From Escherichia phage moha: a stretch of 64,000 bases of DNA. Of the stretch, positions 129 to 62,787 are shown in pieces (the first letter of the stretch is position 1; each line of letters begins with the position of its first letter). The notes beneath the pieces are model-generated. The model was not told where the DNA came from. It saw nothing but the letters and a program-made list of their open reading frames with translations, and did not search any database. Made by a program: the position numbers and the translations under genes. Where the stretch lies: the sequence record MN850590.1, one strand, 5' to 3'.

Positions 129-653
129 ATGTTAGTTTACCGCGTAGAACGTAGTTTTTGTACTCAACGTGAATCATTACCCGGAATTGCTATCGAAGAC
201 GGTAAAGCCGTCAGAATTTGGGAAACCTCTTGGAATAAAGAACCTCGCTCGCCGTACGGTTGGTCGGGTACCGACAACTCTGAAGAAACATGGGAGTTCC
301 TTGATAAACACGGAATACTCTCAGGTAACTTCTACCATCACGGCGACAACTATAATGTCCCTAATCGTCCTACAGTAAATGAAGACAAACTCCTTGAACA
401 AAATATCTTAAGATACTATAGAATTGAGCACACATTTGAATTGAGTGAAGATTGGGCTCAAGGGTTCTATTTTGGATTTGAAAGTGTTGACGCGGTTTAT
501 ACATGGTTTGATGACCAGGTGGATGTTGAACTCTTGAAAGCTAAAGGATACTACATCGCGGTCTATGAAGCACCTGATTTCATACTCGGAAGTTGTCAAT
601 TAATGTTCAGACGTTCATTAGCAGAACAAGTTGATTTTATTTTGCTAAAATGA
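129..653 (+). CDS. hypothetical early protein (T4 motB/cef-region position)
   Basis: 174-aa ORF with GAGGAG RBS 8 nt upstream, preceded by early-type promoter; protein-like composition; synteny upstream of gene 39. Confidence 0.55.
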   Translation: MLVYRVERSFCTQRESLPGIAIEDGKAVRIWETSWNKEPRSPYGWSGTDNSEETWEFLDKHGILSGNFYHHGDNYNVPNRPTVNEDKLLEQNILRYYRIEHTFELSEDWAQGFYFGFESVDAVYTWFDDQVDVELLKAKGYYIAVYEAPDFILGSCQLMFRRSLAEQVDFILLK

Positions 654-682
654 TGTACAACAACTATGGTCTATGATACTAT
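653..682 (+). promoter_or_regulatory. early promoter: -35 ATGTAC, -10 TGaTACTAT
   Basis: -10 hexamer 677-682 centred in palindrome GGTCTAT/ATAGACC (668-687). Confidence 0.45.
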
Positions 683-710
683 AGACCTATCAAAACAAGA
701 GGAGAATATT

Positions 711-938
711 ATGAAACGTCAAATCATTAAAAACGTAACTACTGATTCAAACATCGATGAGTTTGAAGATGTTCTGTTTAATCCTGATTTAGTTGTTGTA
801 CAGAAAAACTGGACTGAATTTTTATGCTACACTGAAGTGGTTTACGTTTACGAAAAACTCGGCGATGAAATGCCTATCTATGGTATCTTCCGTGAAATCA
901 CTGAAAATGGTACAACTTATTGGAAGGAAACTTACTAA
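711..938 (+). CDS. hypothetical small protein
   Basis: Listed ORF 666..938; start moved to internal ATG 711 which has GGAG RBS; the 666 start would lie inside the promoter -10 region. Confidence 0.45.
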
Positions 939-1351
939 TGGCTAATAAATTCCGCGTTAACTCACGGTACCAATTTAAAGATAAACGTGCCCAAGAAGAG
1001 TTTATTAAAGACCACACTGATAATGGGATTTATGCACGACGTCTTGGCATGGAACCATTTAAAGTATTAGATGTTGACCATCTTGGTCGTCCTACTAAAA
1101 TTGTGACATCTACCGGCATGGTTGGATACGCAACAGGCGGTGATATCCTTGATGAAAACTTTATCTGGCTCTCCACGAATGAAGCAGAATTCTTTGACGA
1201 AGTTGGAAATCCATATCAAGCGTCCGAAGAGCAAGATTCTGGTGAACTTGATGAATTGTCTGAATTTCCGGTGATGACGATTACTATCGAAAATAACGAC
1301 CAGGCATGGTCTTTGTATCAAATGTTGAAAGCTCACTTTAAGGAACAATAA
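938..1351 (+). CDS. hypothetical protein
   Basis: Listed ORF 920..1351; ATG 938 overlaps upstream stop (TAATG) and follows GGAAGGA RBS. Confidence 0.5.
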
Positions 1352-1530
1352 TGCCGTTATACGACTATAAATGTCAATCTGAAGATTGTGGTCATGAATA
1401 TGAAAAAATTAAAAGAATTTCTGAACGAGAAAACGATGTTTGCCCTGAATGTCATCGTCTGTCTACTCGTCGGGTTTCTGCTCCTAAACATGTGAACGGT
1501 GGTTTTTACGACTTACTTAAGAAGGGTTAA
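1351..1530 (+). CDS. small zinc-ribbon protein (FmdB-like, CxxC...CxxC)
   Basis: 59-codon ORF not in ORF track (below cutoff); TAATG overlap with upstream stop; N-terminus [18 protein letters not shown] plus second CPEC pair typical of FmdB-type Zn ribbon. Confidence 0.5.
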   Translation: MPLYDYKCQSEDCGHEYEKIKRISERENDVCPECHRLSTRRVSAPKHVNGGFYDLLKKG

Positions 1531-1532
1531 TT

Positions 1533-1955
1533 ATGGCTTTTAAAGGTTTTGAAGTTGGTAAGAAATATCGTATTATTAAAGGACAGGAAGATAATTTCTT
1601 GAGAATTCTTAATACGACTGGTAAACGTCTTAACACTACTCTGCATACAGTTTTATTATCAAGAGATTTTATTGTAGAAGAGATGATTGGTTATGGTGTT
1701 TCAATGATTGCCGCTGAAACCGATGGACCTGGACGTACAATCATTAGTATGCAAGGTGATATTCTAATTTACGGTGCAGAATTTAAATTCTTTGAAGAAG
1801 TTCCTGAATCAGATACAGCCGTAGATTTCAAAAAAGGCTCTATAGAATTTGTTGATGGTTCGGTGATCGTATCAGGTGATGTGGTCATTACAGTTAAAAG
1901 TGAACAAGGGCGTTTGGCTGCAATTGATGCACTTCAGAAAATTAAATTTAAATAA
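1533..1955 (+). CDS. hypothetical early protein (T4 goF-position, 140 aa)
   Basis: ORF immediately upstream of gene 39, size matches T4 goF (~141 aa); followed by hairpin terminator; identity by synteny only. Confidence 0.5.
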   Translation: MAFKGFEVGKKYRIIKGQEDNFLRILNTTGKRLNTTLHTVLLSRDFIVEEMIGYGVSMIAAETDGPGRTIISMQGDILIYGAEFKFFEEVPESDTAVDFKKGSIEFVDGSVIVSGDVVITVKSEQGRLAAIDALQKIKFK

Positions 1956-1974
1956 GGGCTTCGGCCCTTTTTGC
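1954..1974 (+). terminator. intrinsic terminator (GC stem, UUCG loop, U-tract)
   Basis: AAGGGC-TTCG-GCCCTT then TTTTTG. Confidence 0.6.
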
Positions 1975-2018
1975 TTTAGATTTCGGATGATAGAATACCT
2001 TCATAACGAGGAGACAAC

Positions 2019-3836
2019 ATGATTAAAAATGAAATTAAGGTATTGTCAGATGTAGAACATATTAAGAAACGTAGTGGTATGTATATTGGTTCTTCTGCTA
2101 AAGAAGCACATGAGCGTTTTTTGTTTGGTAAATATCAACAAGTTGAATATGTTCCTGGTCTGGTTAAATTAATCGATGAGATTATTGACAACTCGGTTGA
2201 TGAATCTATTCGTACATCATTTAAGTTTGCAAATAAAATTGATGTGCAAATTAAAAATAATCAAGTTTCGGTGGAAGATAACGGACGTGGTATTCCTCAA
2301 GGTTTAGTTACCGACCAAACAGGTGAACAAATTCCTGGGCCTGTAGCAGCCTGGACTATTCCAAAGGCTGGTGGTAACTTTGGTGATGATTCTGAACGCA
2401 AGACTGGTGGTATGAACGGCGTCGGGAGTAGTTTAACTAATATCTTCTCTACGTTGTTTACAGGCATCACGTCAGATGGCGAAAATGAAATCACTGTTAA
2501 TTGTTCAAACGGAATGGAAAACAAATCATGGTCTTCTAAGAAATCTAAATGTAAAGGCACTAAAGTAATCTTCACTCCTGATTTCTCTTCATTTGAAGAG
2601 CATAATTTATCTCAAATTTATTTAGATATTACTTTAGACAGACTTCAAACATTGGCAGTCGTTTATCCTGATATCAAGTTCACATTTAATGGTAAAAAGG
2701 TTGATGGTAATTTTAAACGATTTGCTAAACAATTTGGTGAAGATAACATCATTCAAGAAAATGATAAAGTCTCTATAGCATTCACAACATCACCAGATGG
2801 CTTCCGTCATTTAACTTATGTGAATAACATCCATACTAAAAATGGTGGTCATCATGTTGAATGTGTAATGGATGATATCTGCGAACATCTTTTGCCCGGT
2901 ATTAAAAAGAAATATAAGGGTATTGAAGTCACTAAAGCTCGTGTTAAAGAATGTCTCACAATGTTGATGTTTATTAGAGACATGAGCAACATGCGTTTTG
3001 ATTCTCAGACTAAAGAACGTTTAACGTCAACGTATGGTGATATTCGTAATCATATCCAATTAGATGCTAAGAAAATTGCTCAGGCACTTCTTAAAAACGA
3101 AGCCTTGATTATGCCTATTGTTGAAGCAGCATTAGCTCGTAAATTGGCAGCAGAAAAGGCTGCAGAAACTAAAGCAGCTAAAAAGGCAACTAAAGCTAAG
3201 GTTCATAAGCATATTAAAGCTAACCAATGTGGTAAAGATGCAGATACGACATTGTTTTTAACAGAAGGTGATTCGGCAATTGGTTATCTCATTGATGTTC
3301 GTGACCGTGAACTACACGGCGGATTCCCATTACGTGGTAAGGTGATGAATAGCTGGGGTATGTCATATGCTGATATGATGAAGAACAAAGAGCTCTTTGA
3401 TATCTGTGCTATCACGGGTCTTATTCTTGGTGAAAAGGCAGAGAATACGAACTATCGTAATATTGCAATTATGACCGATGCCGATCATGACGGTCTTGGA
3501 AGTATCTATCCGGCTTTGCTTGCTTTCTTTAGTAATTGGCCTGAATTGTTTGAACAAGGACGTATTCGCTTTGTTAAAACACCTGTAATTATTGCACAAA
3601 TTGGCAAAGCTCAAAAATGGTTTTATACTGTAGCTGAGTATGAAGAAGTTAAAGATACACTGCCTAAGCATAGTATTCGATACATCAAGGGATTAGGCTC
3701 CCTTGAAAAGTCAGAATATCGTGAAATGATTCAGAACCCTGTGTACGACGTAGTTAAACTTCCTGAAAATTGGAAAGAACTCTTTGAAATGTTGATGGGT
3801 GATGATTCAGAACTTCGTAAAGAATGGATGTCCTAA
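2019..3836 (+). CDS. 39: DNA topoisomerase II large (ATPase, GyrB-like) subunit, uninterrupted gene 39 (39+60 equivalent)
   Basis: 605 aa; GHKL ATPase motif VEDNGRGIP; N-terminus resembles T4 gp39; single ORF as in T2-type phages, no bypass element. Confidence 0.9.
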   Translation: MIKNEIKVLSDVEHIKKRSGMYIGSSAKEAHERFLFGKYQQVEYVPGLVKLIDEIIDNSVDESIRTSFKFANKIDVQIKNNQVSVEDNGRGIPQGLVTDQTGEQIPGPVAAWTIPKAGGNFGDDSERKTGGMNGVGSSLTNIFSTLFTGITSDGENEITVNCSNGMENKSWSSKKSKCKGTKVIFTPDFSSFEEHNLSQIYLDITLDRLQTLAVVYPDIKFTFNGKKVDGNFKRFAKQFGEDNIIQENDKVSIAFTTSPDGFRHLTYVNNIHTKNGGHHVECVMDDICEHLLPGIKKKYKGIEVTKARVKECLTMLMFIRDMSNMRFDSQTKERLTSTYGDIRNHIQLDAKKIAQALLKNEALIMPIVEAALARKLAAEKAAETKAAKKATKAKVHKHIKANQCGKDADTTLFLTEGDSAIGYLIDVRDRELHGGFPLRGKVMNSWGMSYADMMKNKELFDICAITGLILGEKAENTNYRNIAIMTDADHDGLGSIYPALLAFFSNWPELFEQGRIRFVKTPVIIAQIGKAQKWFYTVAEYEEVKDTLPKHSIRYIKGLGSLEKSEYREMIQNPVYDVVKLPENWKELFEMLMGDDSELRKEWMS

Positions 3837-3860
3837 GCTCCTTCGGGAGCTTCATTTTAA
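3836..3860 (+). terminator. hairpin / weak terminator after gene 39
   Basis: AAGCTCC-TTCG-GGAGCTT followed by CATTTTA; U-tract interrupted. Confidence 0.45.
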
Positions 3861-3878
3861 TTTTAATAAGGCTTAATT

Positions 3879-4979
3879 ATGAAAGTTATGTTTATCCCAT
3901 CTCGTGCAGTCCCATTTAACCCAGAACGTGTACAAGGTGGTCTTGAAGCAGTACATTTAAATGTGTTGAAATATCTTGTGTCCATCGGTGCCGATATTGA
4001 TTATATTGGTTTTGATAATGACACATTTGGTGATTGGAAGGTTAATCATCATCCTGTTGGTCATCTGACTAAATTCAGTCTAGGTATGAGTTATACTATG
4101 GCTCGTAAGATTGTTGAACTAGCCGGCATCCATGAATACGATTTTGTTGTTACTATGGAACCGACTAAACTAACCGTTCAGGCAATTAAAGACGCAGGTC
4201 TCTCTAAAGTTCATAAGAATTTTATGGCAACACCATTTGAACCGGTATCTCGTGGCATTGTTCAAATTTGGGACCAGACTATTCAAATTCATAAGAATGG
4301 TGGTAAGAGTTATGCTCCTACTAAAGCCTTCCGTGAATTTGAACGTAAATATTGTTATATGACTTCAGGTCTGACTGACAAAATTGATTATGATTATTGG
4401 CGAGCAAATCCTTTGTTTGAAGCCGAAGATTATCCGGTTATTTGTTTGACTGAAAAGCCAGAAGTTCTTCCGGCGACGGATCTGATTATTAGTGCACAAC
4501 GTTATGACACTAAAATGCGTCGTACTGATGTTGCTCTTGAAGCGATTAAAGCACTAGGCGAAAATGGTGCAGGATACTGTCCAAGCAAATGGGCGCCACC
4601 GGCTAAATATCCTGTTATTATTGATGCTCCACACAGTGAAATTATGGAACGTCTTAAAACAGCTAAAGCACTTATTAATACGTGTCCTGACACAGGTACG
4701 GTAGAGAATAGTTCTATTGAAGCCATCTCTAAAGGTGTCCCTGTAATCCAGTTAGTTTTTAAGGATTATCCTCATGCGACATTTGAATACGACCCAGATA
4801 CTGTGCGTGTAGAAATTGATTCCTCTACTCCTAAGAAAGAAGTAGTTGCGCTTTACACAAAAGCTGTATTAGAATTCACTGACACATACGAAGCTCGAGT
4901 TAAACGTGCTGAAGCAGTATGGAAGAAGTATAACCGAGATGCAGTTGTTGCGATGTGGGATAAAATCTTCACAGCGTAA
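3879..4979 (+). CDS. putative GT-B fold glycosyltransferase (GT4-like)
   Basis: 366 aa; N-terminal PFNPERVQGGLEAV (GG-x-E motif) and C-terminal ENSSIEAISKGVPVI (E-x7-E / EAxxxGxPVI motif) typical of GT4 family; occupies the gene 60/mobA locus of T4. Confidence 0.5.
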   Translation: MKVMFIPSRAVPFNPERVQGGLEAVHLNVLKYLVSIGADIDYIGFDNDTFGDWKVNHHPVGHLTKFSLGMSYTMARKIVELAGIHEYDFVVTMEPTKLTVQAIKDAGLSKVHKNFMATPFEPVSRGIVQIWDQTIQIHKNGGKSYAPTKAFREFERKYCYMTSGLTDKIDYDYWRANPLFEAEDYPVICLTEKPEVLPATDLIISAQRYDTKMRRTDVALEAIKALGENGAGYCPSKWAPPAKYPVIIDAPHSEIMERLKTAKALINTCPDTGTVENSSIEAISKGVPVIQLVFKDYPHATFEYDPDTVRVEIDSSTPKKEVVALYTKAVLEFTDTYEARVKRAEAVWKKYNRDAVVAMWDKIFTA

Positions 4980-5071
4980 ATCCTGAATAGCCTGAGGCAC
5001 TATTACACATAAGATGATAGATTATACGGTCTTTAGTAATAGTGCCCTAGGAATCTACTGAAGAGAATATT

Positions 5072-5272
5072 ATGAGAACATATAACGTGGACTTGGAACT
5101 TTTTGATAAAGCAGTGCTCCGGGAATTCCGGCTTATCCAAAGATTTTTTGATATCGAATCAGCAGAGTCCTTTAAAGAACGCTTTAAAGAAATTCGATAT
5201 AAAATACAAACCGATACAGCTACTAAAGAAGAACTTCTTGAAGTAGCAGAAATTTTTAAACGTAACTTGTGA
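5072..5272 (+). CDS. rIIA.1: rIIA.1-like small protein
   Basis: 66 aa ORF directly upstream of rIIA, same size and position as T4 rIIA.1. Confidence 0.6.
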   Translation: MRTYNVDLELFDKAVLREFRLIQRFFDIESAESFKERFKEIRYKIQTDTATKEELLEVAEIFKRNL

Positions 5273-5284
5273 TGAGAGAAAAAT

Positions 5285-7498
5285 ATGATTATTGAAACGG
5301 CTAAAGAAACGATTATTGGTTCAGGCGGTAAGAGCACAGCATTCACTATTCAAGGCAATAGCAAAGTTTATAAGATTTTGTCTAATGACCTTTATACAAA
5401 CAAAGAATTGGCTTGTGTACGTGAATTAATCACAAACTGTATCGATGGACAAATTCTTAATGGTTGCACTGATAAGTTTATTGTTCAGGCTCCAGGTCGT
5501 TTAGACCCACGTTTTGTAGTTCGAGACTTTGGTCCTGGTATGAGTGATTTCACCATTCGAGGTAATGACGAAGAGCCAGGAATCTATAACTCATATTTTG
5601 CTTCAACTAAAACATCGAGTAACGATTTCATTGGTGGATTCGGACTCGGCTCTAAAGCTCCATTAGCATATACCGATACGTTTAACCTTACGTCTTATCA
5701 CAACGGTGAAGTTCGTGGTTACGTAATCTACCAAGATGACACTGGTCCACAGATTAAGCCAACCTTCGTAGATAAGATGGGTCCTGATGACCGGACCGGC
5801 GTTGAAGTAGTTGTACCGGTTAACCCAGAAGATTTTGAAAAGTTCGCATCCGAAATTGCATATGTTATGCGTCCTCTAGGTGATATTGCAGAAGTTCGCG
5901 GTGTTAAAGATATCAAATACTTTCCTGAATTCGATGATGTTTATTTAGCCAAGGAAGCTCCATGGGGTGAACGTGGTAATATCATGGCTGTTTATGGTGG
6001 TATTGTATATCCAATCGGAAGTGTTATTAAAGAACAAACATGGATGATGACGCGATGCACTACAGCTTATATTAAATTCCCTATGGGTGAACTAGATGTA
6101 GCCCCGTCTCGTGAAGCATTGTCATTTGATAAACGTACAGTAGCAAATATCCATAAACGCGTTGCAGAAATCGATGCTAAATTGTTCGCTGAAGATTCTA
6201 AGAAATGGATTGATTGTAAATACCCACGTCATGTGTTCCGTGAAATTGATTCTCTTGGCTATACCGCTCGTAAATACATGGAAAAGGCTGGGTCTAATAT
6301 TGAATCACTGAAATACTCTAAAGAACAACTAACTTATTCCGAGTTGTACAAACGTTTTAAAATGGGACCCGAATGGTGCAACCTTGGCGTTGTATATGAT
6401 ATCGTTTCAGACCCACGACTTCGTCGTATTCGTGAAAGCGGAAGCTCGTCTGCAACTATTTCAATTAATAGCCTGCTAGGTATTAGTCGTAAGCATATTG
6501 ATATCGTTATTGACGATGTGAAAGGCCGCGTACCAATGATGCGTGCTCTGAACGATGCTTTGACTTCCACCGATGCATCAACACTCGTTGATAAGGTTCC
6601 TTCCGGATGGGGTAGTAGCGTATTATTCATTAACCCGGAAGATGAAGTTGCAATGAAACTTCTGGAACGATTAAAGGTTATTTTCGCTGGTGATAGCCTT
6701 AAATTTTATAAGACCTCTGAAATTCTTGCATTAGTTAAACCATGGATTGAAGTTAAAGAACGTTCATCGCAGCCTCGTCCTAAATCCCCAAGTGCTCATC
6801 GGTTCTTTAAGAATGAAAACGATGTTTGGGTATCGGAAGATCTCTTTATTCCAGCGAGTGAAGCTGGTGAAATCCAAGGTTATGCTATAGTTCGTAATCG
6901 TTCTAATGCTGAATGTCTTGACGCAGATAAAGGTTGGTTGAACTATGACTCTAATTTCTTGACCCGTATTGCTGATTTGTCAGATATTAAAGAGTTCACT
7001 GTAGTCCGTCCACAGATTGCTAAGAAAGTTCGTAAACTTGGTGAAGTAGAATGCTTGTTCGAAAAATCAATTAATGACTATATTACGCTAATCGATAAAG
7101 TAGATTATGATGAGTATGTATCACCAAGTCGTAGAGCACAGCCCTATCTAAACCATATTACTCGTAATGAAGAGCTTAACTTCCTTAGTAAGTATTTTAG
7201 CTCTAAGAACAAAGAAATCAGTAAAGATTTTGCAAAACTCTCCACAGTAAATAATCGCTGGGGATGGAATCGATTCGCAGGTGCTACTAATACAGACCTG
7301 AATAAGAAGTTAGAATTGTGTGCTAAAATTTTCGATAAGCTTAAAGATAATGCTTACGATAATGATGATAAAATGATTATTGAATTCGAAACCAATTATC
7401 ATATTGTGTCAGAATACATGGGACGACGTGGTACTCTTTCAAAAGAACAGGTCGCTCAAATCGTTAAATTCATGAAGGCCGTGGAAGCGGCCAAATAA
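5285..7498 (+). CDS. rIIA: rIIA protein (membrane-associated, GHKL-type ATPase fold)
   Basis: 737 aa (T4 rIIA 725 aa); followed by rIIB; recalled similarity to T4 rIIA. Confidence 0.9.
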   Translation: MIIETAKETIIGSGGKSTAFTIQGNSKVYKILSNDLYTNKELACVRELITNCIDGQILNGCTDKFIVQAPGRLDPRFVVRDFGPGMSDFTIRGNDEEPGIYNSYFASTKTSSNDFIGGFGLGSKAPLAYTDTFNLTSYHNGEVRGYVIYQDDTGPQIKPTFVDKMGPDDRTGVEVVVPVNPEDFEKFASEIAYVMRPLGDIAEVRGVKDIKYFPEFDDVYLAKEAPWGERGNIMAVYGGIVYPIGSVIKEQTWMMTRCTTAYIKFPMGELDVAPSREALSFDKRTVANIHKRVAEIDAKLFAEDSKKWIDCKYPRHVFREIDSLGYTARKYMEKAGSNIESLKYSKEQLTYSELYKRFKMGPEWCNLGVVYDIVSDPRLRRIRESGSSSATISINSLLGISRKHIDIVIDDVKGRVPMMRALNDALTSTDASTLVDKVPSGWGSSVLFINPEDEVAMKLLERLKVIFAGDSLKFYKTSEILALVKPWIEVKERSSQPRPKSPSAHRFFKNENDVWVSEDLFIPASEAGEIQGYAIVRNRSNAECLDADKGWLNYDSNFLTRIADLSDIKEFTVVRPQIAKKVRKLGEVECLFEKSINDYITLIDKVDYDEYVSPSRRAQPYLNHITRNEELNFLSKYFSSKNKEISKDFAKLSTVNNRWGWNRFAGATNTDLNKKLELCAKIFDKLKDNAYDNDDKMIIEFETNYHIVSEYMGRRGTLSKEQVAQIVKFMKAVEAAK

Positions 7499-7507
7499 GG
7501 AAACATT

Positions 7508-8455
7508 ATGTACAATATCAAATGCTTGTCCCAAGAAGAACAGTTAGAAGCTTACGGCCTGGTTGAATCAGGCAAATGGACTCGTAAAGAAATTGCCGAT
7601 TACTTCGACATTTCAACAGATACTCTTCGTAAGATTGTTAAGAATTTTAAAGCAGAAGGCGTTGTCCCTGAAGCAAACGATGCCTCTTATGTAATCGAAG
7701 AAGTTCCAGAAAATGATGAACCTATTATCGGCGGCCATCGTCCTGAAATCGTATGGAACGCGTCATCTAAATTTATTTCAATTATTGAAGGACGCGTAGC
7801 ATACAATGCGACTCCATCAAGTCATGCAAATTTTGAAGAAATTAAAGCTAATCTGGTCGCAGGAAACCTTAGTAAAGCTGTCGAACTTATTAACATCAAG
7901 AAAGCTATTAGTAAGTTTGTTGACGGTAATGTTGTTATTGAAGGTGGTAGTTTATTTTATCAAGGTATAGAAATTCGTTCAGGACTGGTTAATCGTATTA
8001 TTGATTCCATGGAAAAAGGCGAAGACTTTAAATTCTATCTGCCGTTCCTTGAAAACCTGTTAGAAAACCCAAGCGAAAAAGCTGTACAACGTTTATTCGA
8101 CTTCTTGGTTGCAAACGATATTGAAATCACTGAAGATGGTCATTTCTATGCGTGGAAAGTAGTTCGTAAGGACTATTTAGACTGCTATAGTGGTACATTT
8201 GATAACTCCCCAGGTAAAGTTGTTTCAATGCCTCGTACTCGAGTTAACGACGATGATACTCAAACCTGTTCTCGCGGTCTCCACGTTTGTGCTAAATCTT
8301 ATATTCGCCACTTTGGTTCAAGCTCAGATAAAGTTGTGAAAGTTAAAGTTCATCCACGTGATGTTGTATCCATCCCGGTTGACTATGGTGATGCTAAGAT
8401 GCGTACATGTCGTTATGAAGTAATTTCAGACGTTACTGAATTATTTGCAGAATAA
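7508..8455 (+). CDS. rIIB: rIIB protein
   Basis: 315 aa; N-terminus MYNIKCL and C-terminal region match recalled T4 rIIB; followed by GGGGAC-UUCG-GUCCCC terminator. Confidence 0.9.
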   Translation: MYNIKCLSQEEQLEAYGLVESGKWTRKEIADYFDISTDTLRKIVKNFKAEGVVPEANDASYVIEEVPENDEPIIGGHRPEIVWNASSKFISIIEGRVAYNATPSSHANFEEIKANLVAGNLSKAVELINIKKAISKFVDGNVVIEGGSLFYQGIEIRSGLVNRIIDSMEKGEDFKFYLPFLENLLENPSEKAVQRLFDFLVANDIEITEDGHFYAWKVVRKDYLDCYSGTFDNSPGKVVSMPRTRVNDDDTQTCSRGLHVCAKSYIRHFGSSSDKVVKVKVHPRDVVSIPVDYGDAKMRTCRYEVISDVTELFAE

Positions 8456-8460
8456 TAATT

Positions 8461-8483
8461 GGGGACTTCGGTCCCCTTTTTTC
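8461..8483 (+). terminator. intrinsic terminator after rIIB
   Basis: GGGGAC-TTCG-GTCCCC then TTTTTTC. Confidence 0.7.
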
Positions 8484-9289: not shown

Positions 9290-9319
9290 GTTTACAACTA
9301 AGTAGGACTATGATATATT
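9290..9319 (+). promoter_or_regulatory. early promoter: -35 GTTTAC, -10 TGaTATATT
   Basis: GTTTAC 9290-9295, TATATT 9314-9319; palindrome TAGGACTA/TAGTCCTA 9303-9326. Confidence 0.5.
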
Positions 9320-9345
9320 AGTCCTATCTAAAAGAGGATAACATC

Positions 9346-9798: not shown

Positions 9799-9828
9799 GT
9801 TTACATCACGGTAGGATTATGGTATAGT
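9799..9828 (+). promoter_or_regulatory. early promoter: -35 GTTTAC, -10 TGgTATAGT
   Basis: GTTTAC 9799-9804, TATAGT 9823-9828; palindrome GTAGGA/TCCTAC 9811-9836. Confidence 0.5.
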
Positions 9829-9856
9829 AGTCCTACTGAAACATGAGGAACACAAA

Positions 9857-16450: not shown

Positions 16451-19400
16451 TTATGCTAAACGAACGATATAGTTAAAAGCAACGTTTTTAACTGTGTTTT
16501 CTGTATTTCCTGTGGCATTTACAGTTATTGTATGTCCATGGGAACCAATCGCTACCGAATGAGAGTGGGCACCAATACCTACAGTATGTGTATGGGCACC
16601 GATACCCACAGTATGAGCATGGTTACCTGTGGTACTTGTAGTTCCTGACCAACTATGGGTGTGGGCACCATCTGAAGAAGTTTTGGCCATATTCGACGAT
16701 GCAGTAGCACCGCTCACGGTTGCAGTGAATTTAGCGTTGCCGTTTGGACCCGCACTATTGTATCCATCATAGAATATGCTAGTGGGTATGCCGCCTTGTA
16801 CCTGAGGACCTGAACGCGCGTGTTGGTGCGCACCAGCGGAACTAGTATTACCACTCACTGTATGGCTATGGTTGCCAGTGGTATTACTGGTCTTAGTACC
16901 ATAATCAAAGCTTGAAGTCGTTTTGCTACCGTAATCAAAACTAGAAGTGGTCTTAGTACCCAAATCTGTGCTTGATGCACTTGCACTATGGCTATGTGAC
17001 TTAACACCGTCTGCTTCTGTACTCAATACATCACGCCCAGATGGTTTACCCTTAATAGTTTGCCCACGCATATCAGGAATAGTACCTGTTGGATACGCTG
17101 CCGCTAGTTTAGGATATGCAGACTTATCAAAGGTTTGACCTTCCATTAAAGCGAACCCGGCTGGAACTGAATCACTTGGCCATGGAATCGGAGCACCGAC
17201 TGGATAAGGTATTTGAGCATCAGAATACATCATATACACTTGACCAACGAGATGACCAGCGGGTAATTCTGTTACTGGTGTTTGATATCCACCATTAAGT
17301 CCAATTACCGAAATATAACGGGTATTTTCTGTGGCGTCATATTCAACTATAAGTTTGTCTGCATAAGTCCCAGCATACAGATAAACGTCATAATCATCAC
17401 CGGAGGTATTAATTGTTGCTATATTAGTAAATCCATTACCCGTGCGCCCCCATAAAGTGGCGTTAATACCTTTAGGATTGTTATTACTGGTACGAAGAAC
17501 TACTTCAGTAATTGTAGCCTGTTCTGGTGAATTGGCATTATATCCATTACCACCTATAATCTTAAATTGGACGGTAGAAACTGATTGTGGCATAGTTACA
17601 GTAGCAAATTTATACCATCCTGCAGTTGAACTACCGGACCAAGTTCCGACCTTAACTCTACGTTCTAAAGTTGTGTTCAGGTTAGCAAAATTACCAGAAC
17701 CACCTGTGATGTTACCATCGGTTCCAATCTGGGTTGAACCTATTCTAAGAGGTTTAGCTATATCAACCGTATCAGAGTTTAATGCAATACCATGGGAGTA
17801 GGTGTAACTATGCATACGAACGACGTTTCCGCCATCGCCAATACCCAAATACCATTTTGTGACATCTGCTTTACGTCCTTGGATGAAGTTAGAAGACTCT
17901 TGTGTTGGAGCATTTATTCTAATAGCATCTGATGCTGTATTTATTGTTATACGCTGACCTGCTGTAGTACCGGATGCTTCTACTTTAAATCTACCGCCAC
18001 CGATATCTACATCATGATCCATGGAAACTTTACCATTACTTAATGCAATATAGAACGGACGTAAATTAGAAATACCACCTGTTTCACCAGCGTTCTGCGG
18101 AGTTGGAATAATATAAAGCTTATCTTCAGAACGACGGAAAATAGCACCATATTCGGCATTCCAAATTCTTAATGCATCTGCTGTTCCACCAAATTTAGCT
18201 TGTCCGTTTACAGATAATCCATTATTTGCAACTAAACTTGATTCACTAACAATAGAACCGGCCGATATAATACCACCACCCACACGTAAAGCGCCGGAAA
18301 TTCTAAATTGGAGAGAACCGACAGTTTCAGAACCTGTTGGAGCTAAACGTTGAGAATAAAAATGATAGCCCTGGCCGTCATACAATTCAAATACGGTTTC
18401 ACGATTACCGGCAGTGGAGTCGAATGCATTACCCCAAGCTTTCATAGTTAAATAACTTTTATTTTGTCCTGCACGGGACCCGGCATTCCACTGGATAGTT
18501 CTCGAGCCATCAACTTTGCTAGGGGCGCCAAATTTAAGTCCTGCAGTATTATTAGAACTATTTAAAAATAATTCGTTGTCCAATTTAACAGGTTGGATAG
18601 AAGAAATAGTGCCATCAGCATAAAACTGTACATTATTAGAGCCAGTTACCAATTTCAAAATACCCGGGTTAATTTCCATACCTTCCTGTGTATTAATGTT
18701 GGTTTGGCCTTTACCACGGAAATAATGGGAAAATTTACCGCCAGAATTATATCCAATGTGGGTTTGACCATCACCTGCATTGTTTGTATCAGCCTGGGTT
18801 TGAACCGATAAAAGCGCGGCGTTGATTCCAGGCATGGTCCAGGTTCCGCCTTGGTCTTCTGAGCGTCCAAATAACGCTTTACGAGTACTACGGAAACTGT
18901 CAGGTGTAATAGAAGCAACAGAATTCCAATTACCTACTAAATCATAAACGCCTTGCTTAATATATTTTAAACCAGTTGCAGCATCGCCCAAAGCAATATA
19001 TCTTTCTCCCATTGGAGTAGGAGAGCCGTAGTTGTTAGTATTTTCGTCAGCAGTAATTGTGCCAATAGCAAGTGAACGACGTAATACCATTGCTCCATCA
19101 TTACGAAGACCCATTAATTTAGTAGTAAGTGTATTTCCGGTCCACCAAGAAATTTCATCATTCTTACCAGTTTGAGCTGAAGCGATTTCATGGTAAATGG
19201 TTCCACCTGATTTAGCTCGAACTTTACGAAGATAGTTTATACCATTTTCTTCACCTGTTCCAGGATAAACATATTGAACTAATGACTGCGAATCGTATTG
19301 TCCAAATGCTTTTGTGTCTAAAACAATGGTTTTCGTATTAACTTGTGGAGCAGAAACTATACCATTAGCGGAGTTAATATTGCCTGACGCAGAAATATTA

Positions 19401-38329: not shown

Positions 38330-38544
38330 CTAAAGAACAGCATGAATACATTAAAGGGCTTATCTATGAATCTGAAATGGCGGCTATGATTTATGGACGC
38401 CAGATTCAACGATTAGAATCTTTGCCTCCGACTAATGACCGCTTGTTAGTTCAGTCTCGTGCTAATCTGAAAAATGAATATCAGAATAAGTGGGCAGTAG
38501 CGACTAAAGCTCTTCATGAGTATATTGAATCTTTAGTAAAATAG
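38320..38544 (+). CDS. hypothetical protein (pseT.1-position)
   Basis: 74 aa ORF. Confidence 0.5.
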   Translation: MPMTKEQHEYIKGLIYESEMAAMIYGRQIQRLESLPPTNDRLLVQSRANLKNEYQNKWAVATKALHEYIESLVK

Positions 38545-38573
38545 TTTACAAACTCTCGGGAGCAGAGTATAAT
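38544..38573 (+). promoter_or_regulatory. early promoter: -35 GTTTAC, -10 TATAAT
   Basis: GTTTAC 38544-38549, TATAAT 38568-38573; palindrome GGAGCA/TGCTCC 38559-38578; near-copy of promoter at 10061. Confidence 0.5.
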
Positions 38574-38601
38574 GCTCCTATGGATAATTGAGGAAATCTA
38601 A

Positions 38602-40668: not shown

Positions 40669-40691
40669 TGGTTTACAACGCGGTGGAGTTG
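40662..40691 (+). promoter_or_regulatory. early promoter: -35 GTTTAC, -10 TGaTATGAT
   Basis: GTTTAC 40662-40667, TATGAT 40686-40691; imperfect palindrome 40673-40701. Confidence 0.45.
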
Positions 40692-40729
40692 TGATATGAT
40701 TAACTCTACCGACAAATGAGGAAATCGAA

Positions 40730-43555: not shown

Positions 43556-43584
43556 GTTTACTTTGGTACAGGTTATGTTATTAT
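43556..43584 (+). promoter_or_regulatory. early promoter: -35 GTTTAC, -10 TGtTATTAT
   Basis: GTTTAC 43556-43561, TATTAT 43579-43584; 9-bp palindrome GGTACAGGT/ACCTGTACC 43565-43595. Confidence 0.5.
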
Positions 43585-43625
43585 AGACCTGTACCAACAA
43601 ACAACTTAAACATCTGGAGAATAAA

Positions 43626-48385: not shown

Positions 48386-50473
48386 ATGTCTGAACAAATA
48401 AACGAAGTGTTTGAATCTGAAGGCAGTCTTCCTGTCGTCAATTTGAACCCTAAAGCTAAAGTTCCACAAGTCTGGAAAATTGGTGATATCGATACAAATA
48501 TTGTAGTTCGTTTATTCTCTTACCTTTCCGAAGGCGACGCTGTAAAACAAGTTAAACTTGGCGACAAATACGCTCATGTTGTTATTATGAGTCTGTCTGA
48601 AAAGGGTAATCTCGCTGAATTGAAAAATGGCCTTGGTCCTGCTCCTATTGATGCAATCAACACCATTTTCAATACAGTATATGAACAAGTTAAAGCTCTT
48701 CGTATGGATGCAGTTCTGTTCCGATTCCCTACCAAGAAATTGAAAGGACGTGGACAACAGCTTCAAACTCTTCTTGCTCGTTTAGTTTCTACTAAAACCG
48801 GTGGTCGTTTTAAAGTATTGTCGGCAATGTATCAATTCACAGGTAAACACACCTATGTGATGATGGTTCGTAAAAATGCCAACATTGAAGATATTAAAGG
48901 CATCCCTAACATTAACACAGAGTTGTACACGAAAGTAGATTCTGATGTTGGCGAAGTTTATGTGAGTAAAAAGACTGGCGAAACGGTTACCAAAGAAACT
49001 GCTATCGCTGGTTCTATTGCCGCGGTAGAAGAAAAACGTAAAGATAAGCCTGTTATTGCTCGCACCAAAATTTCTCGTCGTGCTATTGCAGCAAGTCAAT
49101 CTTTAGAAGCTGACCGACAAGAAGGTGAGTTATTCCAGAAATACGAAAATTCTGCTAAAGAAGTTAGTGGCCCAGCTACAGCCGAATTACTTCCTGAAGC
49201 ATATGAAATCGTACTAGCCCAAGCATCGTCCACAGCAAAAGGCACTTTAGTTGCTGATATCGAAAATAAGATTTATAATCGTATTGATGAATCCTTTAAA
49301 TTTGCTGATGAAGTTTCTTATGGTAGTGTTATTAAGCCGACTTTAGAAAAGTTTGCTAAGAAAATTAAAACCGAAAAAACAACATCTGTTAAAGCATTAG
49401 CTGCTTTTGTTGAAGCTGCAAATGAAATTGCAGACTCTATTAAAGACGAATGGTTTGAAGATTTTAGACGTGATAATTTCCAATTGCCTGACGACGTTTT
49501 AGCTGAAGTATCTGAAAGAACTTGGAAACAACGTAAATCAGCGTTCTTGTCTAATGTGATGTATACTTATGCACGAGAATCGGCTAGAGGCACCTTTAAT
49601 ATAACAATGAATCGGGACCCTAAACAATACTCTGTTGCTGAAAAACGAGCTATTCGCGAATATGCCTCTTCTGCGTATACCGATATCAATAATATGTTGT
49701 TAGGCCGGTATAAACCGGATTTTTATGATGTTGCAGATGAAGATGAAGTTAAACGCGCTATTGATGGTCTTGATTCGGCGTTTTTAAATGGAGACCGTTT
49801 ACCTGAAGGACTAACGTTGTATAGAGCCCAGTCTATCAGAATGCCTATTTACGAAGCAATGGTTAAAAATAAGGTATTCTACTTCAGAAACTATGTTTCT
49901 ACTTCATTAGCTCCTATTATTTTTGGTGGGTTTAAAGAGAACGTTGCCCTTGGACTTGCTCCTGAAGAAGTTCGCAAAGAGCTTAACATTGACAATAATG
50001 ACGAAGGTGTTACTATTTCTCCTAGTCAAGTAAGAACAGCTATGCATGCACCAGAACAAATCCGTGTTAACGTTGGATGGGCTATCGATGGCGCCCATAA
50101 AGTTAACGTGATTTACCCGGGTCAGTTGAGTAATCACCCTAATGAGCAAGAAATTATTTTGCCTAGAGGCATTCTCTTGCAGATAAATAAAATTACAGAT
50201 GCGTCATCTGACACTGGTGCAGGTTTAGAATCCAACCTTAAATTTATTCAAGCTGAAGTCATGTCCTCGGACCAGTTGGACGAAGCTGTCATTTACGATG
50301 GTGATGTTCTCATGGAAACAGGCGAGGTAGTTGCTATGACGGGTGAAATCGAATCAGATGAGCCGGTATCTTTTGCCTCATTTGTAGAAAAAACTAGTGC
50401 ACCTAAAGGTTTGAAATTGTTAGCATCTTTAATGGATTTAGAATCAGTTCCGTTTAAATTTATCCAAGGATAG
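48386..50473 (+). CDS. alt: ADP-ribosyltransferase Alt (virion-packaged)
   Basis: 695 aa (T4 Alt 682 aa); position after ligase and before gene 54; assignment by size and synteny. Confidence 0.7.
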   Translation: MSEQINEVFESEGSLPVVNLNPKAKVPQVWKIGDIDTNIVVRLFSYLSEGDAVKQVKLGDKYAHVVIMSLSEKGNLAELKNGLGPAPIDAINTIFNTVYEQVKALRMDAVLFRFPTKKLKGRGQQLQTLLARLVSTKTGGRFKVLSAMYQFTGKHTYVMMVRKNANIEDIKGIPNINTELYTKVDSDVGEVYVSKKTGETVTKETAIAGSIAAVEEKRKDKPVIARTKISRRAIAASQSLEADRQEGELFQKYENSAKEVSGPATAELLPEAYEIVLAQASSTAKGTLVADIENKIYNRIDESFKFADEVSYGSVIKPTLEKFAKKIKTEKTTSVKALAAFVEAANEIADSIKDEWFEDFRRDNFQLPDDVLAEVSERTWKQRKSAFLSNVMYTYARESARGTFNITMNRDPKQYSVAEKRAIREYASSAYTDINNMLLGRYKPDFYDVADEDEVKRAIDGLDSAFLNGDRLPEGLTLYRAQSIRMPIYEAMVKNKVFYFRNYVSTSLAPIIFGGFKENVALGLAPEEVRKELNIDNNDEGVTISPSQVRTAMHAPEQIRVNVGWAIDGAHKVNVIYPGQLSNHPNEQEIILPRGILLQINKITDASSDTGAGLESNLKFIQAEVMSSDQLDEAVIYDGDVLMETGEVVAMTGEIESDEPVSFASFVEKTSAPKGLKLLASLMDLESVPFKFIQG

Positions 50474-50502
50474 TTTACAAACACATGGATGTGTGATACT
50501 AT
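50473..50502 (+). promoter_or_regulatory. early promoter: -35 GTTTAC, -10 TGaTACTAT
   Basis: GTTTAC 50473-50478, TACTAT 50497-50502; palindrome GGATG/CATCC 50487-50507. Confidence 0.45.
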
Positions 50503-50531
50503 CATCCAATCAACAACATGAGGAAAACGTT

Positions 50532-61656: not shown

Positions 61657-62787
61657 ATGGCTTTTACAGTTGATATAACTCCTAAAACACCTACTGGAGT
61701 TATAGATGAGACTAAGCAGTTTACTGCTGCACCCAGCGGTCAAACTGAAGGTGGAACTATTACCTATGCATGGAGTGTAGACGATGCTCCCCAAGAAGGA
61801 TCAGCAGAAACTTTTGATTATGTGTTAAAAGGACCTGCCGGAACAAAAACAATTAAAGTTGTTGCAACAAATACTATTCCTGATACTGACGCTGAAACAG
61901 CAGAAGCTACTACAACTATCACAGTTCAAAATAAGACACAGACGACTACCTTAGCCGTAACTCCTGCTAGTCCTTCAGCTGGAGTAATTGGAACCCCAGT
62001 TCAATTTACTGCCGCCTTAGCTTCTCAACCAGCTGGAGCGTCTGCTACGTATCAGTGGTATGTAGATGATTCACAGGTTGGTGGAGAAACTAACTCTACA
62101 TTTAGCTATACTCCAACTGCAAGTGGAGTAAAAAGAATTAAATGTGTAGCCCAAGTAACCGCGACAGATTATGATGCAAAGGAAGTTACTTCGAATGAAG
62201 TATCATTAACGGTTAATAAGAAGACAATGAATCCACAGGTTACATTGACTCCTCCTTCTATTAACGTTCAGCAAGATGCTTCGGCTACATTTACGGCTAA
62301 TGTTACGGATGCTCCAGAAGAAGCGCAAATTGCGTATTCATGGAAGAAAGATTCTTCTCCTGTAGAAGGGTCAACTAATGTATATACCGTTGATACCTCG
62401 TCTATTGGAAGTCAAACTATTGAAGTTACTGCAACTATTACTGCAACTGATTACGATAGCAAAACTATTACAGCAGAAGGTCAAGTTCAGGTAACTGATA
62501 AAGTTGCTCCGGAACCAGAAGGTGAATTACCTTATGTTCATCCTCTTCCACATCGTACTTCAGCTTACATCTGGTGCGGTTGGTGGGTTATGGATGAAAT
62601 ACAAAAAATGACTGAAGAAGGTAAAGATTGGAAAACTGAAGATCCAGATAGTAAATACTACCTGCATCGTTACACTCTTCAGAAGATGATGAAAGACTAT
62701 CCGGAAGTTGATGTTCAAGAATCACGTAATGGATACATCATCCATAAAACTGCTTTGGAAACTGGTATCATCTATACATATCCATAA
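61657..62787 (+). CDS. hoc: highly immunogenic outer capsid protein Hoc (Ig-like domains)
   Basis: 376 aa = T4 Hoc; recalled near-identity over N-terminus and C-terminal capsid-binding region. Confidence 0.9.
   Translation: MAFTVDITPKTPTGVIDETKQFTAAPSGQTEGGTITYAWSVDDAPQEGSAETFDYVLKGPAGTKTIKVVATNTIPDTDAETAEATTTITVQNKTQTTTLAVTPASPSAGVIGTPVQFTAALASQPAGASATYQWYVDDSQVGGETNSTFSYTPTASGVKRIKCVAQVTATDYDAKEVTSNEVSLTVNKKTMNPQVTLTPPSINVQQDASATFTANVTDAPEEAQIAYSWKKDSSPVEGSTNVYTVDTSSIGSQTIEVTATITATDYDSKTITAEGQVQVTDKVAPEPEGELPYVHPLPHRTSAYIWCGWWVMDEIQKMTEEGKDWKTEDPDSKYYLHRYTLQKMMKDYPEVDVQESRNGYIIHKTALETGIIYTYP

Follow-up and report, generated by a model that had tools for sequence, protein, structure and literature searches.

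A quasi-palindromic repeat upstream of rIIA.1 in RB69-like phages may mark a decayed promoter cassette

T4-like phages contain promoter-early and promoter-middle stem-loops (PeSLs and PmSLs), cassettes composed of a promoter and a stem-loop, whose degraded (1/2) forms have been described from hyperplastic regions, where they occupy the junctions of indels (Arbiol et al. 2010; Comeau et al. 2014, PMC4122927). Their -10 boxes are often lost, and their stem-loops are either intact or degraded (PMC4122927). The terminator stem-loop of a PeSL/PmSL consists of a short GC stem and a T-run and is located upstream of the promoter. Other hairpins of T4, those of lysozyme gene e, soc and I-TevI, sequester a ribosome binding site (RBS) and are combined with an internal promoter. 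Quasi-palindrome (template-switch) mutagenesis, which perfects imperfect repeats, reportedly received its classic description in T4 rIIB from Ripley and co-workers. With respect to the locus studied here, the spacer upstream of rIIA.1 has a length of 54 nt in T4 and other Tequatrovirus members and constitutes a textbook early promoter, GTTTAC-TTTACCACAAGGATGTGG-TATAAT (GTTTAC-N18-TATAAT); in T4, it separates gene 60 from rIIA.1.

The spacer at the same position relative to rIIA.1 (4980-5071) was analysed in a window of 64,000 nucleotides, a term that is used here for the whole stretch of DNA. Judged by sequence identity, the window is an RB69-like Mosigvirus. Positions 3800-5400 share 99.9% identity with Escherichia phage APCEc01 and 98.2% with RB69, and all 163 records that match this segment are RB69-like T-even phages. 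The records that were opened belong to Mosigvirus, with the exception of JK45, which is filed as Tequatrovirus in its record. The gene upstream of the spacer corresponds to RB69 ORF003c, which has been proposed to be an arabinosyl-hmC transferase, a GT-B glycosyltransferase (PMC6024577). Among the genera examined, ORF003c is located between gene 39 and rIIA.1 in Mosigvirus only; this segment is hyperplastic and differs in every one of these genera. A tblastn search with ORF003c detected homologues in Acinetobacter phages (42% identity), whose genomic context is different and uninformative for the spacer.

As judged from location and sequence homology, the closest described category for this spacer is the degraded PeSL/PmSL. 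It lies in a hyperplastic region, adjoins a lineage-specific gene, resembles a promoter cassette of other phages whose boxes it has lost (see below), and ends in a Shine-Dalgarno (SD) sequence followed by a start codon. Like the 1/2 PeSLs, it possesses a stem-loop without promoter boxes. An intact PeSL/PmSL could be ruled out, because only the SD and the ATG are present, without terminator stem-loop or promoter boxes. In contrast to the stem-loop of a PeSL/PmSL, the hairpin of the spacer is formed by a seemingly new, AT-rich repeat of 11-16 bp that encloses former cassette sequence. Furthermore, there is no second genomic copy of the spacer that could mediate PeSL-type recombination. A repeat family was ruled out, because the window contains no further copy of the arm sequence at 0 mismatches and each genome has the spacer only once. 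The features of the locus are compiled in Table 1.

Table 1. Positions of the repeat, its flanking genes and neighbouring regulatory sites in the window.
Feature	Position	Strand	Remark
Terminator AAGGGCTTCGGCCCTT overlapping the gene 39 MotA-type promoter (TGCTTTA-N12-TAGAAT)	1954..1996	+	
Gene 60plus39, topoisomerase large subunit	2019-3836		
UUCG hairpin with T-rich tail, terminator-like	3835..3852	+	after gene 60plus39
RB69ORF003c homologue, GT-B glycosyltransferase, candidate ara-hmC transferase	3879-4979	+	
Left arm CCTGAGGCACTATTAC	4991..5006	+	perfect core 4996-5006; without counterpart in the Klebsiella-phage spacer
Loop, 29 nt	5007..5035	+	5009-5035 is block i, presumably homologous to Roth16 ATAAGAATGGATTTATATGGCTTTA
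TGATAGATT, TGn/-10-like string in mid-loop	5015..5023	+	5.6 bits on the -10 block
Perfect TATAAT	5021..5026	-	invariant in 16 genomes
Right arm GTAATAGTGCCCTAGG	5036..5051	+	perfect core 5036-5046; block ii plus start of block iii (CCCTA...)
rIIA.1 leader with Shine-Dalgarno, block iii	5047..5071	+	presumably homologous to the Roth16 leader
rIIA.1	5072-5272	+	
MotA-type middle promoter inside rIIA.1, cGCTTTA-N13-TAAAAT	5180..5205	+	T4 PrIIA counterpart
rIIA	5285-7498		
rIIB	7508-8455		

The initial annotation had described a perfect 11-bp inverted repeat with a 29-nt loop between a glycosyltransferase-like ORF and rIIA.1, and this description was accurate. The two arms are GGCACTATTAC (4996-5006) and GTAATAGTGCC (5036-5046), the loop contains the -10-like string TGATAGATTAT (5015-5025), a GTTTAC -35 element is absent upstream, and the flanking genes are the RB69ORF003c homologue and rIIA.1. 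The arms can be extended to 16 nt (4991-5006 and 5036-5051) if one G.T (G.U in RNA) and one A.C are tolerated, and their complementarity at the RNA level comprises 15 of the 16 positions. The perfect core contains only four G-C pairs. The predicted helix spans 61 nt and is irregular, with 4+11+5+3 pairs that are broken by a mismatch and by internal loops; within the loop, AAGAU (5011-5015) is predicted to pair with GUCUU (5029-5033). C5027 of the window is a minority variant, and the T of most genomes adds a pair to the apical helix. We assume that the modelled hairpin forms in vivo.

Perfect inverted repeats of at least 11 bp with a loop of 3-60 nt occur four times in the window, compared to 1.37 +/- 1.16 expected per 64 kb from dinucleotide-preserving shuffles (n=200). 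Since four such repeats were reached in 11 of these 200 shuffles, the 11-mer repeat alone is not significant. Three of the four repeats lie in non-coding DNA (P ~0.0014), which makes up ~7% of the window according to a crude ORF tiling; two of them, in the spacers at 80 and 43563, flank the -10 of one canonical early promoter each. The minimum free energy (MFE) of the 71-nt RNA is -25.5 kcal/mol, compared to -11.4 +/- 2.8 kcal/mol for shuffled sequences (z = -5.0), of which one in 200 folded as well. For a 96-nt minus-strand RNA, -28.1 kcal/mol was computed (z = -4.5), and the single-stranded DNA yielded -10.1 kcal/mol (z = -3.2). All 71-nt segments across the 64 kb average -10.8 (sd 3.9), and the hairpin is the sixth most stable locus on the + strand among them. 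When the 34 spacers with a length of 40 nt or more were compared, 4980-5071 proved to have the lowest MFE per nt (-0.28) and to be the longest of those that lack an early, middle or late promoter motif and a terminator; the sole longer gap without signals was discounted as an artefact of ATG-only ORF calling. On account of the enrichment in spacers, the stability of the 71-nt fold and the lowest MFE per nt, the repeat is above chance level. A mere coincidence, i.e. a chance 11-bp repeat in AT-rich non-coding DNA, of which ~1.4 would be expected per 64 kb, was already disfavoured by these data. It has further to contend with the extended complementarity of the arms and with an adjacent double change in one group of phages that exactly completes the palindrome (see below), and we regard it as very improbable.

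An intrinsic terminator, for which a short G+C-rich stem with a loop of 3-8 nt was required, was ruled out by the large 29-nt loop, the AT-rich stem of 11-16 bp and the missing T-run. The stem is followed by AATCTACTG, which contains no T-run; the sequence next to it is AATCTACTGAAG on the + strand and CTATTCAGGAT on the - strand. A terminator scan detected no terminator-like site in 4980-5071, and in the published TransTerm predictions for RB69, terminators appear at 3649-3662 and 5535-5546 but not in the spacer (RB69 2428-2518). What the hairpin shares with the operon terminators (1954-1969, 3835-3852 and 8461-8476) is its location in a spacer 3' of a gene. Each of these terminators consists of a short GC stem, a UUCG tetraloop and a T-run; in the spacer hairpin, the stem is AT-rich, the loop comprises 29 nt and a T-run is lacking.

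The spacer occupies the site of the T4 early promoter but contains neither a GTTTAC -35 nor a properly spaced TGnTAnnnT. A T4-type early promoter would combine these two elements, 17-18 nt apart, with an A-rich region further upstream. In order to score early promoters, a two-block weight matrix (GTTTAC-N17/18-TGnTAnnnT) was deduced from 14 promoters of the window. The best score within the spacer was -7.0 bits (+ strand), compared to 21.4-36.5 bits for the training sites, and is matched or exceeded at 933 positions of the window. In RB69, published HMM predictions leave the interval from coordinate 156 to 5498 devoid of early and middle promoters. The weight matrix and these predictions rule out an early promoter. 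A MotA middle promoter, for which (a/t)(a/t)TGCTT(t/c)A centred at -30 and a distance of 11-13 nt from a TAnnnT -10 were required, was likewise ruled out, as the spacer contains no Mot box. A pattern search of the spacer found no TGCTT box at the proper distance from any -10-like hexamer. The heptamer that is correctly spaced from TAGATT is ACTATTA and matches the Mot box in three of seven positions, and GTCTTTA (5029-5035) has no -10 downstream. The late promoter TATAAATA is absent from the spacer.

The -10-like string of the loop has to be considered separately. TGATAGATT, whose position reads TGATAAATT in several genomes, could constitute a weak TGn sigma-70 promoter with a start near 5030, which would allow for low, AsiA-insensitive transcription of rIIA.1; the flanking repeat would then be a large-loop version of the palindromes found at early promoters. 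In the early promoters of the window, an inverted repeat with arms of 5-13 bp and a loop of 3-19 nt is commonly located around or just before the -10. TGATAGATT formally fits an extended -10, with TG one base before a hexamer that possesses T1, A2 and T6, and promoters of the TGn/-10 type do not need a -35 and are immune to AsiA (PMC2988021). Moreover, the string is centred in the loop, as is the -10 in the early-promoter palindromes, the -10 region of the loop (GATGATAGATT) hardly differs from GATGATAGAAT in the middle promoter of gene 39, and T4 has a promoter at the same position. However, the score on the -10 block is ordinary; it is equalled at 169 positions of the window, and ~0.24 such sites are expected in a spacer of that size. 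The string lacks a -35, a MotA box and an AT-rich element upstream, the published HMM searches are empty here, and its counterpart in Klebsiella phage Roth16, GAATGGATTTAT within block i (see below), is not the promoter of Roth16. Such a promoter is thus quite improbable in our view.

A -10-like element in the loop is also reminiscent of the RBS-sequestering hairpins of T4, and a transcript started internally would lose the left arm. In contrast to the T4 cases, the stem ends at 5051 and the SD-like GAAGAGA (~5061-5067, with the ATG at 5072) lies outside, which rules out an RBS-sequestering hairpin; according to the fold model, translation of rIIA.1 would therefore not be gated. In the centroid fold, 5052-5075 are unpaired. 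An overlap of this kind occurs elsewhere in the window: at the early promoter 74-124, the right arm AACCAGAGGAGAA of the repeat 80-124 is the SD of the next gene. A mini-ORF in the loop (ATG 5014 to TGA 5061, 15 codons) was considered noise, as there is no conservation at the protein level with a mini-ORF of Roth16.

The repeat might also act at the level of DNA, either as a site for a dimeric or looping protein with two 11-bp half-sites 40 bp apart, or as a cruciform, or by means of the minus-strand TATAAT (5026-5021), which could direct an antisense RNA towards the 3' end of ORF003c. It is true that the arms are perfect as DNA, that ATTATA/TATAAT is invariant in 16 genomes with variable neighbours, and that a terminator-like site exists further along on the minus strand. 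On the other hand, the arm sequence has no further exact copy in the window and the half-sites tolerate private mutations, the fold of the single-stranded DNA is comparatively weak, and extrusion of a cruciform is disfavoured by a 29-nt spacer. The TATAAT lacks a -35, a TGn and a MotA box, and by a rough estimate about a hundred such lone hexamers are found per window in DNA of this AT content. We consider a function at the DNA level highly improbable.

For a deduction of the origin of the spacer, other genera are informative. The T4 spacer shows no similarity to it beyond the SD. In representatives of Dhakavirus, Gelderlandvirus, Karamvirus, Jiaodavirus, Winklervirus and Kagamiyamavirus, other small ORFs abut or overlap rIIA.1, and in Winklervirus and Kagamiyamavirus a leader-like motif precedes a different ORF. 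In Klebsiella phage Roth16, the order is small ORF, GC terminator, ~65 nt, Mot-box promoter (TTGCTTAAA-N-TATAAT), leader and rIIA.1. This arrangement is also present in 113 near-identical records, which, together with Roth16, we take to be Slopekvirus-like, judging from the phages listed.

Roth16 was compared with the genus-majority sequence of the Mosigvirus spacer. Positions 5009-5071 are collinear with the terminator and MotA-promoter cassette of Roth16 in three blocks of 25, 10 and 27 nt. In block i, ATAAGATGATAGATTATATGGTCTTTA (5009-5035) aligns with ATAAGAATGGATTTATATGGCTTTA of Roth16 at a score that was reached by one of 2000 shuffles. In block ii, AGTAATAGTG and AGTTATAGTG of Roth16 match in nine of ten positions. 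Block iii aligns CCCTAGGAATCTACTGAAGAGAATATT with CCCTAAATCACTGAGGAAAATATT of Roth16; for the UTR alone, the score was attained in none of 1000 shuffles. The chain of blocks scored 46.8, compared to 19.2 +/- 3.8 and a maximum of 32.9 in 1000 shuffles, and a control with the reverse complement remained at background level. A 42-nt piece with the Mot box, located between blocks i and ii in Roth16, and the -10 ATATAATTTC between blocks ii and iii are both absent in Mosigvirus. In the right arm of the Mosigvirus repeat (GTAATAGTG+CCCTAGG), block ii runs directly into the beginning of block iii, and this junction is specific to Mosigvirus. The left arm, for which Roth16 has no counterpart, is complementary to the junction.

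These findings, which draw on short blocks and on one outgroup genus, suggest homology of the two spacers and put the idea of a degenerate promoter-palindrome, which had been raised in the initial annotation, in a different light. The part that holds is that the spacer lies at the site of the T4 early promoter and appears homologous to the terminator/MotA-promoter cassette of the Klebsiella phages. In contrast, TGATAGATT is not the remnant of the ancestral -10, because that element was located between blocks ii and iii and is absent, and the 11-bp repeat is not homologous to the -10 palindromes of early promoters.

We consider it about an even bet (probability roughly 0.5) that the repeat is a lineage-specific quasi-palindrome in a decayed rIIA.1 promoter cassette, which gives rise to an intercistronic hairpin with at most a modest, passive effect on the mRNA. 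An ancestral terminator-promoter-leader cassette would have lost its promoter boxes at about the time when ORF003c came to lie upstream. Its remnants would be block i, which now forms the loop, block ii and the leader, which contribute the right arm, and the leader with its SD. The left arm would most likely have been made by one templated, strand-switch inverted copy of ~11 nt, because it is complementary to a Mosigvirus-specific junction and has no counterpart elsewhere. The copy may have comprised only 11 nt, since the left arm deviates at two positions from a perfect copy of the right arm.

The same copying process may later have perfected the palindrome in the clade of AV109, 114, 115, 116 and 118. 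In these five phages, which all come from one study, an adjacent double change CT to TC at 5047-5048 generates a perfect 16-bp palindrome with -35.3 kcal/mol. The resulting CCTCA is the exact product expected from copying the left arm, and it is plausible to regard it as derived because CCCTA is common to Mosigvirus and Roth16. As in quasi-palindrome mutagenesis, an imperfect repeat would thus be perfected in one step. Unlike in the T4 rIIB case, the process is deduced from natural variants instead of a mutational spectrum, and its direction from a single outgroup comparison.

The spacer was found only in Mosigvirus, in 154 records with 94.5-100% identity; outside the genus, matches are limited to the coding sequence of rIIA.1. 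Scans of IMG/VR and of metagenomes yielded only near-identical Mosigvirus sequences and no more diverse homologues. Variability was estimated from 14 Mosigvirus sequences aligned over 891 nt, which had been picked for divergence of the spacer, such that its variability is inflated relative to the flanks. Variable are seven of the 32 sites of the stem arms, five of the 29 loop sites and none of the 20 sites of the rIIA.1 leader 5052-5071. The corresponding fractions are 0.21-0.39 for third codon positions and ~0.03 for first and second codon positions. By these counts, the hairpin evolves roughly at the synonymous rate, and the ribosome-binding leader is constrained.

Four changes break a pair of the stem: T5043C, which converts A-U to A.C and is private to RB69 itself, C4998A in WFbE185, G5036A in GADS24 and G5051C in NHEP36. 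In ESCO47, C5045T results in a G.U. All natural variants retain the overall fold, with energies ranging from -21.8 to -35.3 kcal/mol. In the loop, two independent changes, C5008T in PhAPEC2 and A5035G in ESCO47, each replace one and the same C.A juxtaposition by a Watson-Crick pair, which hints at structural selection at a level that is statistically not compelling. Compensatory substitutions between lineages were not found. Purifying selection on the helix was not detectable in this genus, whose identity of at least 94.5% confers low power.

The proposal that the repeat is an RNA processing or stability hairpin has to be assessed in this context. The hairpin would then be a selected element, that is, a site of RNase III-type cleavage or a protective stem-loop at a 3' end, which would allow the 39-ORF003c message and the rII message to have independent half-lives. 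The fold is exceptional, it is kept in the ~154 genomes and by each variant, two independent changes add the same pair, and one clade perfects the stem. The location, an intercistronic spacer of a presumably long read-through transcript, resembles that of the RNase III sites in T7 early mRNA, which lie in intercistronic spacers of a long transcript. For an RNase III site, ~20 bp or more of double helix, which may be irregular, would be expected between two cistrons; the 4+11+5+3 pairs of the hairpin are a prediction. A dependence on RNase III processing is not known for T4-type phages. The strength of the fold agrees with the proposal, as would read-through transcription of the spacer, but the stem gives no evidence of selection: its variation keeps pace with that of the loop and of third codon positions, four private mutations, including that of the type phage RB69, break its pairs, and compensatory double substitutions between lineages are missing. 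Moreover, the element is limited to one very young genus and matches no Rfam family; the search gave no relevant match and only two snoRNA hits at chance level (E 1.5 and 8.4), both outside the hairpin. A conserved functional RNA helix was not supported, as the stem is no less variable than the loop and no compensatory pair was found. We regard a selected RNA element as unlikely. It is improbable that the repeat is a selected element which, following loss of the ancestral rIIA.1 promoter, sets the stability or processing of the arabinosyltransferase message versus the rII message and belongs, as a large-loop member, to a regulatory class of structure-dependent elements that bracket a -10-like sequence, as inverted repeats do at most early promoters of Mosigvirus. 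In a limited literature search, no transcript-end data for RB69-type phages were found.

The nearest recognisable + strand promoters 5' of the spacer are the Mot-type promoter of gene 39 (1972-1996), the equivalent of the published Pm:5538, and an early promoter at 74. The spacer, having neither a promoter nor a terminator of its own, would be transcribed via read-through from the gene 39 promoter(s), and ORF003c and rIIA.1 would be reached by read-through of the leaky-looking terminator 3835-3852. On the minus strand, a terminator-like site is located at 4474-4457. T4 PrIIA is a middle promoter within rIIA.1 with the start site 2263 (PMC2988021 Table 1). A promoter of this type is conserved inside rIIA.1 of the window, T4, Roth16 and IME08; rIIA therefore needs no promoter in the spacer.

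In such a transcript, the irregular hairpin of 61 nt (~-25 kcal/mol) would lie between the ORF003c stop codon and the rIIA.1 RBS and would leave the latter free. It might passively block 3'-to-5' exonucleases and thereby stabilise the upstream 39-ORF003c segment, and its self-contained fold might keep the initiation region of rIIA.1 single-stranded. The element by itself matters little. The spacer would document, however, how a T-even regulatory cassette decays after insertion of a gene, here the candidate ara-hmC transferase that would define the RB69-type DNA modification. ORF003c and rIIA.1 of Mosigvirus have no recognisable promoter of their own and appear to rely on read-through from the gene 39 promoter(s). 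A natural field example of templated quasi-palindrome mutagenesis would be given by the CT-to-TC change. Should the hairpin prove to act in processing or stability, it would offer a handle on the expression of the gene for DNA arabinosylation.

In the JK45 record, an extra ORF lies between two identical spacers. This arrangement, which is possibly an assembly artefact, is not a mobile cassette but a 503-bp tandem duplication that runs from the 3' end of ORF003c across the spacer into rIIA.1, of which it includes the first 16 nt.

An inverted repeat is present at most of the plus-strand early promoters of the window (GTTTAC-N17/18-TAnnnT). The left arm lies within the spacer between the -35 and -10 elements and the right arm begins 0-3 nt past the -10 element; arm pairs are, for example, TAGGACT/AGTCCTA, TGGATG/CATCCA and TTGGTACAGGT/ACCTGTACCAA. 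At the early promoters 35954 and 37139, the palindrome is located entirely within the -35/-10 spacer, and the same arrangement is found in the T4 promoter preceding rIIA.1. The right arm of the first repeat (74-124) is the Shine-Dalgarno sequence of ORF 129-653. The ribosome-binding site of this ORF would therefore be free only in transcripts that begin at that promoter. The early promoters also show a conserved initial transcribed motif, aGaCCTATCAAcAA.

Two further elements are associated with middle promoters. In the long-loop inverted repeat inside rIIA.1, the loop contains the Mot box of the conserved middle promoter PrIIA, and the right arm overlaps its -10 element; a counterpart of this repeat is not obvious in T4. 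In the cassette that precedes gene 39, the terminator AAGGGCTTCGGCCCTT-TTTGCTTTAG has a T-run that serves as the Mot box (TGCTTTA), and TAGAAT follows. This arrangement is of the PmSL type (middle-promoter/stem-loop cassette), and it agrees with the published Pm:5538 and terminator 5535-5546 of RB69.

Features in the window and in related phages. Positions refer to the window unless another phage is named.
Feature	Position	Strand	Description
Early promoters with inverted repeat (among others)	74-124, 9290-9326, 9799-9835, 38544-38585, 40671-40712, 43556-43598, 50473-50510	+	
Long-loop inverted repeat	5147-5159 / 5192-5204		inside rIIA.1; arms TTTGATATCGAAT / ATTCGATATAAAA, 12/13 complementary; 32-nt loop
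Terminator/middle-promoter cassette	1954-1996		compact; upstream of gene 39
Leader motif	5047-5071; L022 570-594; L024 and L025 about 255-281		
Mini-ORF MIDYTVFSNSALGIY*	5014-5061		15 codons; begins in hairpin loop, stops just short of rIIA.1 Shine-Dalgarno
Tandem duplication	Shigella phage JK45 (L003, MK962757) 1500-2291		503 bp, perfect

A similar leader motif, …CTGA(A/G)GA(A/G)AATATTATG, precedes rIIA.1 in both Mosigvirus and Klebsiella phage Roth16 (locus L022). In Winklervirus and Kagamiyamavirus (loci L024 and L025), it precedes another ORF of approximately 110 aa that overlaps rIIA.1. This distribution suggests that deletions or exchanges have taken place between repeated ribosome-binding leaders. 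The pentanucleotide ATAAG is found at 3866-3871 (…TTTTAATAAGG), directly behind the terminator tail of gene 39 and before ORF003c, and again at 5009-5014, where it starts block i of the hairpin loop (ACATAAGATG). In Roth16, ATAAGA immediately continues the terminator tail. The pair is a possible 5-nt microhomology on either side of the ORF003c insertion, albeit too short to serve as evidence.

Exact matches to the 91-nt spacer of the window occur in only two records, one of which is PNJ-6. APCEc01, the closest genome overall, differs at one spacer position. Position 5027 is a C in the window and also in MM02, whereas nearly all other Mosigvirus genomes contain a T. The mini-ORF that begins in the loop is probably without meaning; at the homologous place, Roth16 has an unrelated mini-ORF of 19 codons. 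Several other 71-nt windows fold at least as well as the hairpin (-25.5 to -29.5 kcal/mol), namely those near 62021, 54601, 16821, 52661 and 58756 on the plus strand and near 16540, 38105 and 35000 on the minus strand.

The duplicated unit of JK45 extends from the 3' part of ORF003c across the entire hairpin spacer into rIIA.1, of which it includes the first 16 nt. The duplication is annotated as an additional ORF of 136 aa. It may be genuine or an assembly artefact. The JK45 record is filed under Tequatrovirus; its locus is Mosigvirus-like.
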